From assembly GCA_964348525.1 (NCBI GenBank), contig CAYGCY010000001.1, positions 21,873-85,872 on the forward strand: 64,000 nucleotides of DNA. Reading direction: 5' to 3'. Each line of letters starts with the position of its first letter. Within the stretch, counting starts at the first letter, position 1. Positions 3,854-62,260 of this stretch are shown one piece after another. The notes under the pieces were generated by a model. That model was not told the DNA's origin. It was given only the letters and a program-made list of their open reading frames with translations, and searched no databases. A program made the translations under genes and the position numbers. Source of the stretch: an uncultured Candidatus Saccharibacteria bacterium. Its GTDB lineage: Bacteria; Patescibacteriota; Minisyncoccia; Phycocordibacterales; Zambryskibacteraceae.

Positions 3854-3924
3854 TGCCAGTTCGTCTAATGGTAGGACGACCGCCTCTGGAGCGGTTAATT
3901 GGGGTTCGAGTCCCTGACTGGCAG
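3854..3924 (+). tRNA. tRNA-Gln (anticodon CUG)
   Basis: 7-bp acceptor TGCCAGT/ACTGGCA with U1:A72 (characteristic of tRNA-Gln), U8, D-stem GTCT/GGAC, anticodon stem ACCGC/GCGGT, loop CTCTGGA (CTG), T-loop TTCGAGT, discriminator G; no encoded CCA. Confidence 0.75.
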
Positions 3925-4105
3925 CAAATGGGCAAAGCCGATTTTCTGCTAGTCAGCAAAGCAATTTATTGCTTTGCGTAGGGTACTCGAAAGGCGCAGG
4001 TGTATTTTTGTTTTGCAAGGCAAAGGCAAAAATACCGAGCAGGGGTCGCGAAAAATTTCCGTCAGGAAATTTATTTGTGACCGAGTCCCTGACTGGCAGC
4101 AAATG
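3907..4105 (+). repeat. 24-bp direct repeat of the tRNA-Gln 3' end (CGAGTCCCTGACTGGCAGCAAATG at 3907-3930 and 4082-4105) bracketing a 151-bp hairpin-rich insert
   Basis: exact 24-nt duplication read in sequence; att-site-like arrangement. Confidence 0.6.
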
Positions 4106-10204: not shown

Positions 10205-10246
10205 ATACCAAGTGTACCAAAGGTTTTACCAATAAAGAGAGAATAT

Positions 10247-10308
10247 AAACCAGAAATGCCTCGTCACGGAGAGATAAACCTCGCTCCTAAACGAGGCATT
10301 TCTGGTTT
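10247..10308 (+). repeat. Hairpin element copy A (conserved loop CACGGAGAGATAAACCTCGCTCCTAA; 18-bp perfect stem)
   Basis: stem AAACCAGAAATGCCTCGT / ACGAGGCATTTCTGGTTT read directly; loop matches family consensus. Confidence 0.8.
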
Positions 10309-10325
10309 ATATTTATATTAAGACG

Positions 10326-14574: not shown

Positions 14575-14603
14575 TTGACAGATATAGCATAGTATGCTAT
14601 CAT
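14575..14603 (+). promoter_or_regulatory. Sigma70-like promoter (TTGACA-17-TATCAT) with an internal palindrome ATAGCATAgtATGCTAT in the spacer, upstream of the GC-rich island gene
   Basis: hexamers and spacing read directly. Confidence 0.5.
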
Positions 14604-14679
14604 ATTAACAGCAGTACCGTGGGCATTCCGGCCCACACACATCACAGTTTTACGCCCTAGGGGGCGGAGGACAACAGCC

Positions 14680-15609
14680 ATGCCGTTCATCCAGAGTGTT
14701 GAGAATGTCGCGAAGGTGGAGAAGGCTTTCCTCGCCGTGTGCGAGGAGCTCTCCAAGGTGGTCGAGGAGTGCCGGACGATTCCGGACTTCCGCATCCACC
14801 GGCTCGTCGAGGTGCTTCTCTTGGTCGTTGGGCGCGCCTGCGCCTGGATCGAGAAGGAGCCCCTGAAGTCGAACCCCAAGCGCCTCGAGTACCTCGGTAT
14901 CGAGGTGACGCGCGCGAAGGATCGCCTCGTCGGCGCTCGCATCAACTTCCTGAGGAATCGGGATGAGACGCGGGAGCGGGTTGTGCATGAGATGAAGGCG
15001 ATGAAGCATTTCGCCTCGCTTCTCAATGCTCACCTCGCGGAAGCCGAGCAGGTCATCCTGTTCGACATTCCGGAGCTTGCGCCGTGCGCGGTGCAAGTCT
15101 CTCACGACATCGAGCTCAAGCTCGAGCGTGGGCAGAAGGTCACCGTGAACGAGGTGGTTGAAGCCTCGCAAAACGCCTCGACCCAGCTCAATGTCCTTCG
15201 GGACGCGGAGCGCTCGTTCTACGAGGACGAGGCTGTCCTCAACGACCTGCGGATGCGCATCAATGCGCTCCGTCGTGACGAGACGGTCTTCCGTCGCGTC
15301 GGGAACGGTCTCTTCCACCGCGCTGGCTTCCTTGCGAAGCTCGCAAAGCCGGGTAGCGGGGAGTCGCTCGCGCTTCTCCGCAAGACCTTCATCGTCCTTC
15401 TCAACCAGCTGGTTGAGGTGGAAGAGGAGGTTGCGGCGAAGGAAGCTTCCGCGCGTGTCGCGGAAGTGCTCACGCCCCCGCCCTCGAAGCGCCGGAAGCC
15501 CCGTCGCTACGTCGCGAAGGGCGAGAAGCGCACCGAGCCCAAGGAGAAGAAGGGCAAGAAGGAGAAGAAGGGCGAGAAGGGCAAGCGCAGGCTCGCCGTC
15601 GCCGCCTGA
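14680..15609 (+). CDS. Hypothetical alpha-helical protein (309 aa) with Lys-rich C-terminal tail, encoded in a ~60% GC island; ORFan
   Basis: GGAGGA SD 7 nt upstream of ATG, single long ORF spanning the whole GC-rich segment, intrinsic terminator 20 nt downstream; C-terminus KEKKGKKEKKGEKGKRR. Confidence 0.6.
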   Translation: MPFIQSVENVAKVEKAFLAVCEELSKVVEECRTIPDFRIHRLVEVLLLVVGRACAWIEKEPLKSNPKRLEYLGIEVTRAKDRLVGARINFLRNRDETRERVVHEMKAMKHFASLLNAHLAEAEQVILFDIPELAPCAVQVSHDIELKLERGQKVTVNEVVEASQNASTQLNVLRDAERSFYEDEAVLNDLRMRINALRRDETVFRRVGNGLFHRAGFLAKLAKPGSGESLALLRKTFIVLLNQLVEVEEEVAAKEASARVAEVLTPPPSKRRKPRRYVAKGEKRTEPKEKKGKKEKKGEKGKRRLAVAA

Positions 15610-15627
15610 AGCACAAGCTGTGAGACA

Positions 15628-15657
15628 ACGGCCATCCGAAACAGGATGGCCGTTTTC
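15628..15657 (+). terminator. Intrinsic terminator
   Basis: ACGGCCATCC-GAAACAG-GATGGCCGT hairpin followed by TTTT. Confidence 0.75.
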
Positions 15658-15724
15658 TATTGCGCATTGCGCACCTTTTTCAAATAACTATAATGTGCGC
15701 ACCTTATAAGTAGGAGATAACAAT

Positions 15725-26930: not shown

Positions 26931-27627
26931 AATAATTCCAGCTATTTTAGAAAGAAGTTTTGAAGAAATAGAAAAAAAGGTCAGGATGATTTCTGAGGTG
27001 AGTCCTTTTGTACAGGTGGATATAGTTGATGGTGTGTATGGGAAAGAGAAAACATGGCCTTTTATTAAAGGTGAGGATGAAAATTTAAAAAAATTGGTTC
27101 AAGAAGACCAGTCACTTCCAGAATGGGAGTCGGTGTCATACGAATTTGATTTGATGGTAGATAACCCAAGGGCTTTAGCAGATACATTTGTTATGGCGGG
27201 CGCATCTAGAATTATTGTTCACTATTCGTCATTTAAAGATGAACAAGAGCGAGAAGTATTTCTCCGTGATTTTAAGAAAAAATATAATTTGCCAGAACCG
27301 CTTTCAGTCGAGCTTGGTTTAGCAATTGGCGCAGATATAAATATAGAAGAAATTTTAAAATACAAAGACACAATTGATTTGGTGCAGTTAATGGGGATTG
27401 ATCATGTAGGGCAACAGGGGGAAATATTTAATGAAAAAACAATAGCGCGGGTAGCAGAACTAAAAAAACTTTTGCCAGAAATGACTATCCAAATTGATGG
27501 GGGGATAAAAGAAGAAACTATAAAACCATTAGTAGAAGCTGGGGCGGGTAGGCTAATAATTGGCTCTACAATCTGGAACGATGAAGACCCTGTCGATGAG
27601 TATGAAAAGCTCTCAGAAATGGTCTAA
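26923..27627 (+). CDS. rpe: Ribulose-phosphate 3-epimerase family protein
   Basis: VDIVDG and C-terminal IDGGIK...AGAGRLIIGSTI resemble the Rpe barrel; start overlaps rpiB stop. Confidence 0.6.
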   Translation: MSEIIPAILERSFEEIEKKVRMISEVSPFVQVDIVDGVYGKEKTWPFIKGEDENLKKLVQEDQSLPEWESVSYEFDLMVDNPRALADTFVMAGASRIIVHYSSFKDEQEREVFLRDFKKKYNLPEPLSVELGLAIGADINIEEILKYKDTIDLVQLMGIDHVGQQGEIFNEKTIARVAELKKLLPEMTIQIDGGIKEETIKPLVEAGAGRLIIGSTIWNDEDPVDEYEKLSEMV

Positions 27628-27635
27628 AAATATCT

Positions 27636-27697
27636 AAAACAAAAGTACCTTATCACGGAGAGATATACCGCGCTCCTAAATGAGGTATTTTTGTTTT
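27636..27697 (+). repeat. Hairpin element copy B (loop TCACGGAGAGATATACCGCGCTCCTAA)
   Basis: stem AAAACAAAAGTACCTTAT / ATGAGGTATTTTTGTTTT (16/18 paired). Confidence 0.8.
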
Positions 27698-27806
27698 AGA
27701 TAGCATAAAAATGTCCCACTACAGGCAGTAAAACTTGTTTCTAAACGAGATGTTTTGGCCTTGTGTTAAATACAGCTCTAAAGAAGCTAATGATATAATT
27801 ATCCTA

Positions 27807-35133: not shown

Positions 35134-36507
35134 ATGAAACGAAGAATAGTTTTTTTATTATTTGTGTTTGTACTGGCCGGAATCACTCCGGTTGTATCTA
35201 GTGCGCAGACACTTTCTCCTCAAGAGAGAGCCGTTCTTCAGGCGGAATATGACCAAACTCTTAGGGATATAGATGCCCTCCAGAAGACGATAGATGACCT
35301 AAAGAATCAGCAAAAAACAATAAAGGGAGACATCTCGCTTCTAACAGCCCAGATTACTCAAGCAGAAAAAGTTTTGAAGCAGAAAAATCTGACCATAAAA
35401 CAGCTTACAACTGACATAAACACCAAGACACAGAAAATAAATACCCTTACAGCTCGAATAGAGAGAGGCAAGGTGTCTTTGGCAGAGCTTTTAAGGAAAA
35501 CAAATGAAATAGACACATACAGCTTGCCTGAAGCGGTGCTCTCCAACCAAGATGTTTCTGAATTTTTTGGTGACTTAGATACTTTTAGTTCTATCCAAAG
35601 AGATTTGTATGATCTTTTCAATGAAATAAGAGGTGTAAAACAAGAAACAGAAAAAGAAAAACAGGCTCTGGCCCAGAAGAAAGATCAAGAACTGGATGCG
35701 AAGTATGTGATAGAAACTAAAAAAAATGAAGTGGCTGCAAATAAAAAAGAGAAGGACCAGCTTTTAGCTGTAGTAGATAAAAATAAAGCCAGCCAAGACG
35801 CACTTTTGGCAAAAAAACAGGCGAGGGCTGATGCAATAAGGGCAGCCTTGTTTAATTTGCGTGACGCCCAAGGTATTACTTTTGAGAAAGCGCTTCAGTA
35901 TGCGGAAATAGCCTCACAAAAAACTGGAGTGAGAACTGCGATGATACTTGCCATTCTTTCTCAAGAATCTGATTTAGGAAAAAATGTGGGGTCGTGCTAT
36001 GTGAAAGATTTACAAACAGGCAATGGTATAGGGAAAAACACAGGCACTTTCTTTGAACAAGTAATGAAATCTCCAAGAGATACCTCTGTATTTTCTGAAA
36101 TTACAAACATTTTAGGATTGCCGTGGGAGACCACTCCGGTGTCGTGCCCAATAGGCGGGACAGCTTATTACGTTGGAAGAGGATTTGGGGGTGCAATGGG
36201 GCCATCGCAGTTTATTCCCTCCACTTGGGAACTTTTCAAATCACGTATAGCAAAAGCAGTAGGGGTGAGCATAGCAAATCCATGGGAGCCCGAACACGCA
36301 ATAATGGCAACTGCAATTTATTTAGCTGATTTAGGCGCTAACGGAGGAACATATACAAATGAGAGAACCGCGGCTTGCAGGTATTATTCCGGCAAAAATT
36401 GTTATGCAAGCAATGGCAAGGCGAATGTTGGATTAACTTATGGTAATCAGGTAATAAAAAAGGCGGAGACTTTCCAGAGCAATATCGATTTCTTGAAATC
36501 TGTTTAG
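35134..36507 (+). CDS. Secreted coiled-coil protein with C-terminal lysozyme-like/lytic-transglycosylase-like domain (PcsB-like architecture)
   Basis: signal peptide, ~230 aa coiled coil, then ILSQES...GAMGPSQF...AIYLADLG resembling the SLT catalytic E-S / G-L-M-Q / AYNAG pattern. Confidence 0.5.
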   Translation: MKRRIVFLLFVFVLAGITPVVSSAQTLSPQERAVLQAEYDQTLRDIDALQKTIDDLKNQQKTIKGDISLLTAQITQAEKVLKQKNLTIKQLTTDINTKTQKINTLTARIERGKVSLAELLRKTNEIDTYSLPEAVLSNQDVSEFFGDLDTFSSIQRDLYDLFNEIRGVKQETEKEKQALAQKKDQELDAKYVIETKKNEVAANKKEKDQLLAVVDKNKASQDALLAKKQARADAIRAALFNLRDAQGITFEKALQYAEIASQKTGVRTAMILAILSQESDLGKNVGSCYVKDLQTGNGIGKNTGTFFEQVMKSPRDTSVFSEITNILGLPWETTPVSCPIGGTAYYVGRGFGGAMGPSQFIPSTWELFKSRIAKAVGVSIANPWEPEHAIMATAIYLADLGANGGTYTNERTAACRYYSGKNCYASNGKANVGLTYGNQVIKKAETFQSNIDFLKSV

Positions 36508-36534
36508 CAAAAATTGAAGAACTAAACAATATAT

Positions 36535-36600
36535 AAAGCAAAGTGCCTCACCACGGAGAGATATACCGCGCTCCTAAACGAAACGCCTTCACTTTTTGCT
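36535..36600 (+). repeat. Hairpin element copy C (loop CACGGAGAGATATACCGCGCTCCTAAAC)
   Basis: imperfect stem AAAGCAAAGTGCCTC / GCCTTCACTTTTTGCT. Confidence 0.7.
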
Positions 36601-36611
36601 AAAAAAGAGTC

Positions 36612-36657
36612 CATCTACAAAGGTCGAACCTTCGCGAAGGTTCGACCTTTGTAGATG
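36612..36657. repeat. 46-bp perfect palindrome (CATCTACAAAGGTCGAACCTTCG | CGAAGGTTCGACCTTTGTAGATG)
   Basis: read directly; 23-bp arms, no loop. Confidence 0.8.
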
Positions 36658-36806
36658 ATTGAACTATATAGGGAGCGAGAGGGGCTAATGGCAAAAATGT
36701 CCTACGAGCATAATTTAAAAAAATAAGCTCGTTTATTTTTTTAAATTATCAAGTAGACAAAATACGAAGTATTTTAGCCATTAATTTCCGAGCGTACGAA
36801 GATAGC

Positions 36807-36843
36807 AATACCCCCCAATTTGGAGCTAAATTGGGGGGTATTG
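36807..36843. promoter_or_regulatory. 15-bp-arm perfect palindrome (AATACCCCCCAATTT-ggagct-AAATTGGGGGGTATT) abutting the -35 box of the ncRNA promoter
   Basis: read directly; 3' arm ends at the TTGACA hexamer. Confidence 0.6.
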
Positions 36844-36868
36844 ACAAAAATACAAATAGGTGTATACT
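36841..36868 (+). promoter_or_regulatory. Near-consensus sigma70 promoter TTGACA-16-TATACT
   Basis: hexamers read directly. Confidence 0.65.
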
Positions 36869-36874
36869 AGGGAT

Positions 36875-37145
36875 ACCTTACGCTGGTACGAGCCCGAGCG
36901 CGTAGGAGGCCACCGGCCATGTTCCGGAGAGGCATTCAGGGCGACTGCGGGGTGAAGGCGCTGAGTAGTATGAGGGTCGCCTCCGCTCACGCGTTGGATG
37001 GTGCCGTGCGCTCGAAGTTAGCGCATTGGCAGGCGCAGGTCTCTCGGTGGCCAGAGTAATGGTACACGGGCACGAAGAAGTGCCGACAGGGACCCCTTCG
37101 GGGAACCTTAAAGGGCCCGGACGATTCTGTCCGGGCCCTTACTGC
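36875..37145 (+). ncRNA. GC-rich (~60%) structured non-coding RNA of unknown class, ~270 nt, upstream of rpmE
   Basis: no ORF of 60 aa or more in any frame; long-range complementarity (GGCCACCG 36908-36915 with CGGTGGCC 37046-37053), local hairpins including a CCCC-UUCG-GGGG tetraloop hairpin and terminal stem AGGGCCCGG/CCGGGCCCT. Confidence 0.55.
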
Positions 37146-37193
37146 TATATGTTTGATAATTTTTTAAATACGGGTATATTAAGTGGACAATAA

Positions 37194-37463
37194 ATGAAAA
37201 AAGGAATACATCCAGATAACTATAGACAGGTAATTTTCCACGACAATTCGTCGGAGGCTGAATTCCTAGTGGGTTCTACTATAAAGAGCGAGGAGGCAAA
37301 GAAGTGGAAAGATGGCAAAGAGTACCCATTGGTCCACGTAGAAATATCTTCAGCTTCCCATCCTTTTTATACTGGCAATGACAAAGTGATAGACACAGCA
37401 GGCCGAGTGGAGAAATTCAAGGCTCGTCAGAGCAAGGCGACAAAGAAAGCAAAAAAGGCGTAG
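37194..37463 (+). CDS. rpmE: 50S ribosomal protein L31
   Basis: [10 protein letters not shown]...HPFYTG pattern. Confidence 0.85.
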
Positions 37464-40391: not shown

Positions 40392-40454
40392 CTCAGTTGG
40401 TAGAGCAATACTTTTGTAAAGTATGGGTCGCAGGTTCAAATCCTGTCTCCGGCT
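40382..40454 (+). tRNA. tRNA-Thr (anticodon UGU)
   Basis: acceptor GCCGGAG/CTCCGGC, D-arm GCTC-AGTTGGTA-GAGC, anticodon stem ATACT/AGTAT loop TTTGTAA, T-arm GCAGG-TTCAAAT-CCTGT, discriminator T. Confidence 0.85.
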
Positions 40455-40592
40455 CAAATAAAGTGTTTTATTTGAGTCTGGATTTGAAGGTCGGAGCGAT
40501 GTTTTGCTAGCAAGCAAAACCGCGAGACGGGGTCGCGACCGAGCCGAGTGACGACGAGCCGAGAGTTGTGGCCTAATCCTGTCTCCGGCTCA
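40439..40592 (+). repeat. 18-bp direct repeat of the tRNA-Thr 3' end (AATCCTGTCTCCGGCTCA at 40439-40456 and 40575-40592) bracketing a 118-bp insert homologous to the one downstream of tRNA-Gln
   Basis: exact duplication; both inserts share TTTTGCTAG(C/T)(A)AGCAAA and GGGGTCGCGA blocks. Confidence 0.6.
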
Positions 40593-47510: not shown

Positions 47511-47573
47511 TTTGATTGGCAAATAAAAGGGAAATCAATTATTCTACCCATAGACCCCTTACAGGAGGTGGAT

Positions 47574-47750
47574 TGTGACGGCACGACCGGTGCATGACGC
47601 CCCCGCACAAGAGGAGAAGCCCCCTGCGGTACAGGAAGTTGTTCTTTGCCCAGAAGGCGAAGACTGTCTGAGGCCTGAGTGTCTCGTGGCAGGTCGATTC
47701 CAATGGTGCAGGCACCCGATACGCACCGGAGCTACGATTCCGGTGTCGTG
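47574..47750 (+). CDS. Cys-rich microprotein, 59 aa (MTARPVHDAPAQEEKPPAVQEVVLCPEGEDCLRPECLVAGRFQWCRHPIRTGATIPVS), ~62% GC; below ORF-track cutoff
   Basis: AGGAGG SD 6 nt before GTG, four Cys, intrinsic terminator immediately after TGA. Confidence 0.4.
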
Positions 47751-47755
47751 ACAAA

Positions 47756-47785
47756 AAGCCGCCACAGATGTGGCGGCTTTTCCAT
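47756..47785 (+). terminator. Intrinsic terminator
   Basis: GCCGCCAC-AGAT-GTGGCGGC then TTTTCCATTTTT. Confidence 0.75.
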
Positions 47786-47811
47786 TTTTGTAAAAAAGCA
47801 ACGTAGCCTAT

Positions 47812-47873
47812 CTAAAGCAAAAGCCTCATTACGGAGAGATAAACCTCGTTCCTAAACGAGGCATTTCTGCTTT
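47812..47873 (+). repeat. Hairpin element copy E (loop TACGGAGAGATAAACCTCGTTCCTAAAC)
   Basis: stem AAGCAAAAGCCTC / GAGGCATTTCTGCTT, imperfect. Confidence 0.7.
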
Positions 47874-47904
47874 GTGTAAATAATAAAAATATATTTTGTT
47901 ACAA

Positions 47905-47941
47905 GGAATAAAAACAAATGGGGAACCCCTAGGGGTTCCCC
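47905..47941 (-). terminator. Intrinsic terminator for minus-strand small gene
   Basis: GGGGAACCCC-TA-GGGGTTCCCC palindrome with T-run on minus strand. Confidence 0.7.
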
Positions 47942-47947
47942 ATACTT

Positions 47948-48178
47948 CTACTGCTGTTCCACAGCTTCGAACATCGAGGCCGGATTGTAGCCAGCAGTTT
48001 CCACCTGCACGTACCAGCCGATTTCCCCGTCTATCCTGAGGGGCTTCACATCTCGCACCATGTGCTGGGAGAGCGAGGTACGACCTTTCCAGCGTACCAA
48101 CTGGCCCTTCGCAAACGGTGCGGTCCCGAGACTGCCGGGAGTGTTGTCGCTTTCCAAAGACGGTTCTCCGACTTGCAT
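47948..48178 (-). CDS. Hypothetical small protein (76 aa), GC-elevated (~55%), possibly an SH3/Tudor-like beta domain
   Basis: AGGAG SD 6 nt before ATG; own terminator; convergent with the Cys-rich microprotein. Confidence 0.5.
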   Translation of the reverse strand: MQVGEPSLESDNTPGSLGTAPFAKGQLVRWKGRTSLSQHMVRDVKPLRIDGEIGWYVQVETAGYNPASMFEAVEQQ

Positions 48179-48241
48179 TCGAATCTCCTGTGCAAAGACG
48201 TGGAGAATTAAGATACCTTAAATAATTGTTTTTGTAAACCG

Positions 48242-53081: not shown

Positions 53082-53285
53082 ATGAGCCACGAAGAAATGC
53101 CCAAGATTTCGGTAGCGGAACTCAGAAAACAACTCCCCGCTCTACTCGACCAAGTCAATTTTCTGGGTAAGAAGTTCATGGTTACGAAGCATGGCAGGCC
53201 ATACGCCATTCTTCAGGCGATTGGTGGGCGTGAGGGTCCAGCATCGTTCACCCCCAGATGCCCCGTTCGTAAAAGCGCCGTCTGA
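53082..53285 (+). CDS. Phd/YefM-family type II antitoxin-like protein (67 aa), GC-elevated, no adjacent toxin gene
   Basis: AGAGGAG SD; ISVAELRKQLPALLDQVNFLGKKFMVTKHGRPYAILQ matches the Phd/YefM N-terminal fold pattern; intrinsic terminator after stop. Confidence 0.55.
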   Translation: MSHEEMPKISVAELRKQLPALLDQVNFLGKKFMVTKHGRPYAILQAIGGREGPASFTPRCPVRKSAV

Positions 53286-53300
53286 TGACGGCGCTTTAGT
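53273..53300 (+). terminator. Intrinsic terminator
   Basis: AGCGCCGTC-TGATG-ACGGCGCT then TTAGTT. Confidence 0.6.
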
Positions 53301-59043: not shown

Positions 59044-59643
59044 TTATTTACTGTATTTATATCGCCTGAACACCATCACGTGCCACACAGCCTGACGCTT
59101 CTCTTCCGTCGCCTCGATTCGTCCCGCTCCCTCATGAAAGAGTAGTCGAGAGCGGATGAATTTTTGTTCGGTGAGTGTTAGGCCGAGCCTTGCGATGTCG
59201 ACGGTTGAGCCCATGAGGTGTGAAGACGCACGGGCTCCGTACGTTTTCGCCGCATTGCGATTTCGTTTCCGCAACTCAGCCTGCGTTTCAATGTCTCTGA
59301 CGCAGGAATTCACCTGAATGGGTTTACCGAACTTCTTCTCAAACCTCGTGCCGAGGTCTTTGATGAAGTCGACAGTCTGTGGACGACAGAAACGTCTGTT
59401 GAGAGGAAGCTCGGAGTCTACTACGACTCCGTACTTACCATCCGGAATGCGAACCAAAAGTCCGGCTTTGACAAATCTCTTGATCATCTCTTCGTTCTTG
59501 ATTTTCGAGAGATTTTCACGCTTCCCTTGCTTGTTCTGTCTTTCAACAGAAGAAGGGGAGCCTCGAAGAGATGGTCTTGTCGTAACTTGCGCCTCTGCAA
59601 TAAGCGCACAGAAAGACAGGTATACTGCAAACAACTTCCGCAT
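59044..59643 (-). CDS. Secreted peptidase M15 family (VanY/D-Ala-D-Ala carboxypeptidase-like) protein, GC-elevated (~53%)
   Basis: signal peptide; zinc-ligand pattern SSHLMGSTVD (H-x6-D) and C-terminal AVWH. Confidence 0.55.
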   Translation of the reverse strand: MRKLFAVYLSFCALIAEAQVTTRPSLRGSPSSVERQNKQGKRENLSKIKNEEMIKRFVKAGLLVRIPDGKYGVVVDSELPLNRRFCRPQTVDFIKDLGTRFEKKFGKPIQVNSCVRDIETQAELRKRNRNAAKTYGARASSHLMGSTVDIARLGLTLTEQKFIRSRLLFHEGAGRIEATEEKRQAVWHVMVFRRYKYSK

Positions 59644-61678: not shown

Positions 61679-61695
61679 GTATCTCTTGTAGAAGG

Positions 61696-61757
61696 ATTGG
61701 GAAGGCATTGTCACGGAGAGATATGCCGCGCTCCTAAACAATTCCCTCCCAGTCCTT
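61696..61757 (+). repeat. Hairpin element copy F (loop TCACGGAGAGATATGCCGCGCTCCTAAAC), overlapping the rnr 5' end on the opposite strand
   Basis: stem GGATTGGGAAGGCATTG / CAATTCCCTCCCAGTCC (14/17). Confidence 0.7.
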
Positions 61758-61817
61758 TCCGGTTAAAACTTTAACATATCTTGCAGTAGTTCTTAAATTT
61801 GGTACTATAGCGCGACA

Positions 61818-62111
61818 ATGTTAATGATAAGACTACAGAGGGTGGGCAGAAAACACGAGACGGCTTTTCGTCTTGTTTTGACTGACAAACAAAACAGCAC
61901 AAAGTCTGGACGCTATCTCAAGGCTTTGGGTTCTTATGACCCACGCAAAGAGACGCAGCATTTTGATGCAGAAAATATTAAGAAAGCGATTTCTCATGGA
62001 GCAAAACTTTCTGTCACTGCCAACAACCTTCTTATCTCGAATGGCATTATAGAGGGCAATAAAATAAACGCCCAGCCAAGAAGATCTCCTAAACCAGAGA
62101 AGAAGAAATAG
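61818..62111 (+). CDS. rpsP: 30S ribosomal protein S16
   Basis: MLMIRLQRVGRKHETAFRLVLTD bS16 N-terminus. Confidence 0.9.
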   Translation: MLMIRLQRVGRKHETAFRLVLTDKQNSTKSGRYLKALGSYDPRKETQHFDAENIKKAISHGAKLSVTANNLLISNGIIEGNKINAQPRRSPKPEKKK

Positions 62112-62116
62112 ACATA

Positions 62117-62180
62117 GCAAAATAAGGAGCCTTGTCACGGAGAGATATACCTCGCTCCTAAACAAGGCCCCTTATTTTGC
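62117..62180 (+). repeat. Hairpin element copy G (loop TCACGGAGAGATATACCTCGCTCCTAAA)
   Basis: stem GCAAAATAAGGAGCCTTG / CAAGGCCCCTTATTTTGC (17/18). Confidence 0.8.
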
Positions 62181-62260
62181 TTTTACTGATATAAGGGAGG
62201 GGTATTTCATTGTGCTAAAATGTTCTTGGTAGTTATTTAGTATTTAATTAAACGAAAGAA

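Follow-up and report, generated by a model that had tools for sequence, protein, structure and literature searches.

The 64,000-nucleotide (nt) stretch of DNA analysed here, taken from the genome of an uncultured Candidatus Saccharibacteria bacterium and referred to below as the window, carries a GC-rich, non-coding segment of 277 nt (36869-37145, plus strand) upstream of rpmE, the gene encoding ribosomal protein L31. We are inclined, with somewhat more confidence than doubt, to regard this segment as a stand-alone accessory gene for a structured non-coding RNA (ncRNA) belonging to one species-level lineage of Paceibacteria (Patescibacteria). The segment would form an independent transcription unit, because its promoter lies at the edge of the GC island, its 3' end is closed by a hairpin, and rpmE has a separate, conserved promoter of its own. 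A reading of the DNA without database searches (the sequence-only reading) had proposed a promoter-driven, GC-rich and structured ncRNA of unknown class at this site, and the proposal holds: the segment matches no Rfam family, contains no real open reading frame (ORF), folds strongly, is constrained in sequence, and is patchily present among relatives.

Homologues of release factor 1 assign the window to the Paceibacterota/Minisyncoccia within the Patescibacteria. The gene order at the locus is L25, a gene for an SLT-domain protein, a 686-nt spacer, rpmE, prfA, rpsB and tsf. The SLT gene (35134-36507) encodes a 457-amino-acid (aa) coiled-coil protein with an SLT lytic-transglycosylase domain, while rpmE (37194-37463) is located 3' of the RNA segment. 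With 101 G, 75 C, 52 A and 49 T, the segment has a GC content of 63.5%, in line with the ~60% noted initially, compared with 40.5% for the window, and it lies within a GC island (36848-37161) that peaks at 68%. The near-consensus promoter described in the sequence-only reading is found on the plus strand at 36841-36868 as a sigma-70-type promoter with 11/12 matches, consisting of TTGACA (36841-36846), a 16-nt spacer, and TATACT (36863-36868). It lies precisely where the GC-rich stretch begins, and the start of the RNA is predicted from it at ~36874-36876. A perfect palindrome (36806-36843) with two fully complementary arms of 16 nt (36806-36821 and 36828-36843) and a 6-nt spacer reaches into this promoter, as the first three bases of the -35 box fall inside its right arm. 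The palindrome had been reported with 15-bp arms abutting the -35 box; thus, its presence and perfection stand, while the arms are one nucleotide longer and overlap the box. It is a candidate operator, or may form a DNA or RNA hairpin, and its half-site has no further copies above chance in the window. For comparison, related loci (L-numbers) were collected from prfA homologues and ~50 Paceibacteria species genomes, and in one of them, L008, a comparable long palindrome reaching the -35 box can be read from the sequence. The RNA sequence is identical in two more assemblies (L001 and L002) and recurs at 97% identity in a third (L096), and therefore does not represent an assembly artefact.

Comparison with the sister strain L096, whose PrfA protein is 98% identical to that of the window, provides a measure of constraint. 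The RNA promoter of L096 is identical to that of the window, and the 277-nt RNA differs by seven substitutions (2.5%) and two indels, a 2-nt insertion and a 1-nt deletion. In rpmE and prfA taken together, 66 of 418 third codon positions differ (15.8%), as do 1.6% of first and second positions. The RNA has thus changed about six times more slowly than the neighbouring third codon positions (Fisher P = 2e-9), almost as slowly as the amino-acid-determining positions of two essential genes, and the difference between 7/277 and 66/418 indicates purifying selection on the RNA. Both L096 substitutions located in consensus helices preserve pairing, changing C-G to U-G and A-U to G-U (the latter being A36907G in helix P2, described below), and both indels are found in or next to hairpin loops.

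The minimum free energy (MFE) of the 277-nt RNA is -131.4 kcal/mol, with a z-score of -3.1 against 200 dinucleotide shuffles and of -3.5 in an independent run. The plus strand folds 18 kcal/mol better than its complement, as would be the case if G-U pairs contribute to the fold of this strand, and most helices have pair probabilities of at least 0.8 (numbering of the RNA starts with nt 1 at window position 36869, and P values of helices are ensemble pair probabilities). A 5' domain of 199 nt is predicted to be closed by P1 (36874-37064 from end to end), a helix of ~25 bp with small bulges formed between 36874-36901 and 37033-37064 (nt 6-33 and 165-196; mean probability 0.76-0.96), which encloses P2, P3 and P4. 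P2 (36905-36925, nt 37-57; P 0.46-0.88) is a small hairpin, GGAGGCC-ACC-GGCC..UCC, and contains AGGAGG, which resembles a Shine-Dalgarno (SD) sequence. P3 (36933-37000, nt 65-132; P 0.65-0.99) is a long, irregular hairpin of 68 nt, and P4 (37002-37031, nt 134-163) is a hairpin of the form UGCCGUGCGCU-loop-AGCGCA.UGGCA, the loop of which carries an additional GA in L096. On the 3' side, the domain is followed by hairpins P5 (37069-37084, nt 201-216; GGCAC-GAAGAA-GUGCC, P 0.99), P6 (37088-37108, nt 220-240) and P7 (37111-37140, nt 243-272). The UUCG-tetraloop hairpin of the sequence-only reading corresponds to the tip of P6, CCCC-UUC(G)-GGGG at 37093-37103, where L096 is missing one C of the C run, and its terminal GC clamp helix corresponds to P7, a GC-rich hairpin of 13 bp with the arms AAGGGCCCGGACG and UGUCCGGGCCCUU; both have a probability of 0.95-0.97. 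P7 resembles a terminator, yet its U tract is poor (CUUACUGCUAUAUGUUUG), and a terminator scan made no call on it. The long-range complementarity that had been noted within the segment is present but was not borne out as a helix by the predicted fold. While GGCCACCG (36908-36915) and CGGTGGCC (37045-37052) are indeed complementary and 129 nt apart, pairing between GGCCACCG and CGGUGGCC has a probability of only ~0.04 in the thermodynamic ensemble, and CGGUGGCC is instead part of the closing stem P1. The consensus fold of the window and L096 sequences retains the P1-P4 architecture, the 5' domain being the aligned part.

The RNA is outside all 4227 Rfam families. At gathering thresholds, Rfam 15 returned only three tRNAs in the whole window, and searches at E<=10 with 701 nt of the locus and with the 277 nt alone gave only weak, hairpin-type chance matches; across the scans of the window, the RNA and the relatives, these chance matches were to mir-142, MicC and abiF. 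No match at E<=10 was obtained to 6S, RNase P, tmRNA, SRP, L31 leaders, raiA, ROOL, GOLLD, OLE or HEARO, and ARAGORN identified no tmRNA, in agreement with the failure of the sequence-only reading to recognise RNase P, tmRNA or SRP features. The Rfam scan that had been suggested together with that reading therefore gives no reason to reclassify the RNA into a known family. In addition, eight related loci searched at E<=1 showed no match to an ornate or large ncRNA family.

In the related genomes, SLT and rpmE are widely found in synteny, mostly with a spacer of only 20-120 nt between them (~50 Paceibacteria loci). This slot survey is based on a scan of GTDB genomes with prfA, in which the closest relative showed 63% identity and the RNA could not be aligned. 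Within a closer clade, with prfA 66-87% identical to that of the window, five loci carry slot units of their own: 606 nt in a 915-nt spacer in L090, 256 nt in 315 nt in L003, 515 nt in 644 nt in L004, 383 nt in 529 nt in L008, and 263 nt in 333 nt in L093, with peak GC contents (100-nt window) of 71, 64, 66, 67 and 69%, respectively. L006 and L095, with spacers of 56 and 21 nt, have no slot unit, and more distant genomes, e.g., L023 and L035, have small protein genes in the slot. Promoters with 11-12 of 12 matches are found at the 5' edge of the units of L090, L004, L008 and L033, but not of L003 and L093. A hairpin closes the 3' end of all five units of the close clade; the U run behind it is clear in L004, L008, L090 and L093 but weaker in L003. 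They fold with z-scores of -3.5 to -7.0 against shuffles, and in four of the five the plus strand is favoured by 20-33 kcal/mol, L093 showing no preference; the farther units of L010 and L033 have z-scores of -4.0 and -4.8. In AT-rich relatives, the slot unit is the sole GC island within 5.6-9 kb. None of the relatives' units matched Rfam.

The occupants of the slot are largely unrelated to one another. Between the window RNA and the slot units, pairwise local alignment reached z-scores of at most 2.3, and shared k-mers were not above shuffled controls. Blastn and local alignment of the window RNA against all fetched loci recovered only the copies in L001, L002 and L096, and neither a covariance model nor blastn found a copy in 450 kb of related loci; the RNA is absent from species at or below 87% prfA identity. 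Among themselves, the units align with z-scores of at most 3.4, except for L004 and L008 (z = 12.8). These two slot RNAs (L004 3139-3653 and L008 3258-3640) share a core (L004 3276-3433 and L008 3361-3502) with 142-158 nt aligned, five compensatory pairs out of 37, and indels of 1, 2 and 19 nt. They are orthologous and evolve fast, representing a separate, unclassified structured RNA without an Rfam match, and their compensatory pairs show that elements of this type do exist at other loci. A covariance model of their core (161 positions, 37 pairs) found only L004 and L008 in 450 kb that included the whole window. The SLT protein of L003 is 78-80% identical to those of L004 and L008, as close as these are to each other, yet L003 carries a different RNA; slot occupants have therefore been replaced rather than merely diverged. 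Protein identities across the slot are likewise discordant, with 64% for SLT and 87% for prfA between the window and L090 and 80% and 78% between L003 and L004, which suggests recombination breakpoints at or near the slot. These comparisons show the SLT-rpmE site to be a hotspot of cassette turnover. Since sister species carry unrelated RNAs, nothing, or small protein genes at this position, the window RNA is accessory rather than housekeeping, and was probably acquired. It could further be speculated, although we consider it doubtful, that in this Paceibacteria clade the site is a dedicated RNA cassette slot in which sister species swap unrelated, strongly expressed, GC-rich and highly structured RNAs of 250-600 nt, each under purifying selection in its own lineage. 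If so, the locus would be hypervariable in its RNA content, much like a defence island, and the slot RNAs might act in encounters with phages or with the episymbiont's host cell that differ from strain to strain, for example as decoys, sponges or delivered RNAs.

A possible course of expression and action can be outlined for the window RNA. RNA polymerase would initiate at the near-consensus sigma-70 promoter and transcribe ~270 nt, and the transcript would end at P7, the strong GC hairpin that directly precedes rpmE's own promoter. A DNA-binding protein could gate this transcription at the 38-bp palindrome over the -35 box. In the predicted fold, the ~25-bp closing stem of the 199-nt domain, made up of the 5' end and nt 165-196, encloses a three-hairpin junction, and three more hairpins follow on the 3' side; the closing stem between the 5' and 3' parts and the 3' hairpins may render the RNA stable. 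The RNA would most likely act in trans, its stable fold binding or sequestering a protein partner, rather than via rpmE or a peptide. As for antisense targets within the window, only 11-nt matches were found, none of them complementary to an mRNA of the right strand.

Several observations weigh against a selected, trans-acting RNA gene. No partner, target or homologue of the RNA was found in the searches, and its role as a trans-acting binder of protein is suggested by its architecture only. Just two distinct variants are available (the shared sequence of the window, L001 and L002, and that of L096), too few for an analysis of covariation. The substitution pattern fits the window MFE fold no better than chance and is statistically uninformative (randomisation P = 0.30), because A-to-G and C-to-U changes always keep pairing. 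Furthermore, the MFE fold of the L096 variant alone differs from that of the window, some of the similarity to L096 could stem from recent recombination instead of selection, and P7 lacks a U tract, so that read-through into rpmE is possible.

This possible read-through, the position of the segment 48 nt upstream of rpmE (close to the ~50 nt given in the sequence-only reading) and its structure liken it to an L31 leader, and ribosomal-protein leaders are common, with L31 leader families present in Rfam. The segment might thus be a cis element of the rpmE-prfA-rpsB-tsf operon, either a leader or attenuator bound by L31, as the sequence-only reading had also considered, or a transcriptional insulator or roadblock. 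However, rpmE has its own promoter (37153-37180, plus strand; TTGATA-16-TATATT) between P7 and the gene, which marks the 3' limit of the RNA and places the element upstream of the rpmE promoter and not in the 5' untranslated region (UTR). Aligned promoters are found in relatives (TTGCGA-16-TATAGT in L004 and L006, TTGCGA-16-TATATT in L008), including L006 with its empty slot. The ATG of rpmE follows the -10 box at 13 nt in the window and at 9 nt in relatives, and no SD sequence is present; rpmE therefore appears to be made with almost no leader (~7 nt in the window, or none in relatives), and any rpmE read through from upstream would presumably be poorly translated. As an observation apart, L090 has ~110 extra nt between the rpmE promoter and rpmE. 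Given that the slot measures 20-120 nt in most Paceibacteria, that its contents are absent, replaced or unrelated between species, and that the RNA matches no Rfam L31 leader model, a cis element is quite improbable, and the leader or attenuator reading is unsupported. Even less credible is a small-protein gene or a dual-function RNA encoding a peptide. Contrary to the sequence-only reading, the segment is not free of ORFs, since frames of 31, 46 and 55 aa exist, and the 46-aa ORF (MFRRGIQGDCGVKALSSMRV..., 36919-37059, plus strand) is the only one with an SD-like sequence, AGGAGG lying 9 nt before its ATG; moreover, other GC-rich islets of the window are cassettes of promoter, SD, ORF and terminator. 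Yet this ORF fails every coding test. Its GC content by codon position is flat (0.60/0.53/0.74, as against 0.68/0.37/0.84 in the real GC-rich gene at 14680-15609), as is that of the region in all six frames (0.59-0.70 at every codon position), and it has no Pfam match and no homologue among 5.8 billion proteins. In L096, the SD-like motif is AGGGGG, and the 2-nt insertion shifts the frame, replacing the last 14 residues and ending the ORF at 34 aa with a different tail. Moreover, no credible ORF was found in the slot units of L090, L003, L004, L008 and L093, and the L004/L008 core has the indels of 1, 2 and 19 nt given above. The 46-aa ORF was consequently judged spurious and rejected as a gene.

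6S RNA (SsrS) and the 6S-like Ms1 of actinobacteria are further points of comparison, as they are stand-alone, strongly transcribed and stable RNAs, as the window RNA would be. 6S RNAs are built of a closing stem, a large open central bubble and an apical stem, and a divergent 6S-type RNA could mimic an open promoter and thereby sequester the RNA polymerase holoenzyme. In the window RNA, the ~200-nt domain has the proportions of such a rod, with its 5' and 3' parts forming a ~25-bp closing stem around a central region, the 68-nt P3 as apical hairpin and segments of 31-32 nt flanking it, and it is preceded by a strong sigma-70 promoter. However, the flanking segments, the would-be strands of the bubble, are predicted to be folded as P2 and P4 (P up to 0.98) rather than open, a 78-nt 3' tail follows the domain, the RNA is not conserved among close relatives, and the 6S covariance models (RF00013 and lineage variants) give no match at E<=10. 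6S is also normally inherited vertically, whereas relatives at 72-87% prfA identity either lack an RNA at this position or carry unrelated ones of 256-606 nt. The 6S-like RNA offered among the options of the sequence-only reading is thus unsupported as a family assignment and, apart from the proportions of the 5' domain, very unlikely. Finally, the segment could be inert or decaying foreign GC-rich DNA in a recombination hotspot, functionless if transcribed at all. The composition foreign to the genome, the absence of the RNA from all species at <=87% prfA identity, the discordant SLT and prfA identities, and the GC-rich orphan cassettes and att-like tRNA 3'-end duplications elsewhere in the window (see below) are all consistent with this. 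Against it stand the slow change relative to neighbouring third codon positions, a near-consensus promoter exactly at the segment edge, a strand-asymmetric fold well beyond that of dinucleotide shuffles, and the equally strong structure of all slot-mates in relatives. Nor was a foreign source recognised: the window RNA had no blastn match in collections of phages and plasmids, two 20-21-mers of it had no match in viral contigs, and one 19-mer had two matches of 19-20 nt in JGI metagenomes, both in high-GC coding DNA, not extending further and about as many as expected by chance. We therefore regard inert DNA as unlikely and retain a stand-alone gene for a structured ncRNA as the favoured explanation.

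Among RNAs without assigned function, the ornate families (raiA, ROOL, GOLLD, OLE and HEARO) are GC-rich islands that often reside in mobile DNA. The window RNA resembles them as a GC-rich, highly structured promoter-to-terminator unit of patchy distribution, and the slot units of L090 (606 nt) and L004 (515 nt) match the size range of ROOL and OLE. Unlike the window RNA, which is found in one species-level lineage and matches no model, those families are widespread and show strong covariation. A closer parallel is offered by a survey of GC-rich intergenic regions (GC-IGRs), in which 4714 intergenic regions from 50 genomes yielded 607 low-ranking and 427 unnamed candidates, the low-ranking category having fewer than five distinct representatives (PMC11109978). 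The window RNA agrees with these orphan candidates in being long, GC-rich, intergenic, complex in predicted structure and located in an AT-rich genome with fewer than five representatives (63.5 versus 40.5% GC, two distinct variants), and would be classed there as low-ranking. Going beyond them, it is framed exactly by promoter and hairpin, shows constraint in a rate-based comparison with a sister strain, and occupies a syntenic slot in which sister species carry non-homologous RNAs.

Taken alone, the window RNA is a modest find, one more orphan GC-rich intergenic RNA where surveys yield hundreds (PMC11109978), although it is a clean candidate in being precisely framed, non-coding and constrained in sequence. 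More unusual is that one syntenic slot holds non-homologous yet equally structured RNAs in sister species, in a genome dotted with GC-rich orphan cassettes. The ncRNAs of Patescibacteria (candidate phyla radiation, CPR) appear to be little studied, and a search of the literature on ncRNAs or 6S of CPR or Parcubacteria turned up nothing relevant. If the slot reflects an exchange of functional RNA cassettes, it would make accessory RNA genes, and the flow of genes, accessible to study in episymbiotic bacteria that have not been cultured.

Elsewhere in the window, the GC-rich islets are orphan cassettes that code for proteins and have promoters and terminators of their own. In the cassette at 14576-15660, with up to 73% GC, the promoter is consensus-like and contains a palindrome, and an SD sequence and a terminator are both present; the encoded 309-aa ORF (14680-15609; GC at the three codon positions 0.68/0.37/0.84) has no Pfam domain and only two homologues in 5.8 billion proteins (96% and 40% identity). 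Two small convergent cassettes are located at ~47560-47790 (plus strand) and 47918-48207 (minus strand), with a copy of a hairpin repeat between them. The minus-strand cassette has the SD sequence AGGAGA and a 76-aa ORF without a Pfam match, while the cassette on the plus strand, where an SD-like AGGAGG precedes a GTG, ends in a terminator-like hairpin; a putative short ORF, its frame tentative, can be read in it by eye. The ORF of a further islet at 53083-53286 (plus strand) has 67 aa and matches the Phd/YefM antitoxin family below the threshold (26.9 bits, cut-off 29.8, E 4e-6), and another islet at 59044-59643 (minus strand) encodes a 199-aa DUF5715/peptidase M15-like protein. Two tRNA genes are followed by downstream duplicates of their 3' ends, of 36 nt at 86% identity for tRNA-Gln (3895-4105) and of 18 nt at 100% identity for tRNA-Thr (40439-40592). 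Inserts of ~120-150 nt, with motifs such as GGGGTCGCGA in common, are enclosed by the duplicates, the tRNA-Thr insert being GC-rich, and these structures look like att-site scars of small integrated elements. Together, the orphan cassettes and the tRNA 3'-end duplications imply that the genome acquires GC-rich accessory DNA. The RNA is in keeping with this pattern, as is the suggestion in the sequence-only reading that it may have been acquired and matches the other GC islets in composition.

The remainder of the expanded intergenic slot (36508-36805) holds one copy of the hairpin repeat and two palindromes. One of the palindromes is AT-rich (36710-36749); the other (36612-36657) is perfect, with 23-nt arms and no spacer, and scores as an intrinsic terminator for the minus strand only, where a T run follows. 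The independent assemblies L001 and L002 both break at the latter. The hairpin repeat occurs in six plus-strand copies in the window (10236-10325, 27625-27714, 36523-36612, 47801-47890, 61683-61772 and 62107-62196) and, among relatives, in L090 (2636-2725 and ~5054) and L091 (~1497). It was found in this genome and its nearest relative only, is absent from Rfam, and matches nothing among viral sequences. Its stem of ~21 bp varies between copies, with compensatory changes at 19 of 26 predicted pairs, while the apical module, CACGGAGAGAUAWACCKCGCUCCUAAAC, is nearly invariant, and several copies are located directly after gene ends.

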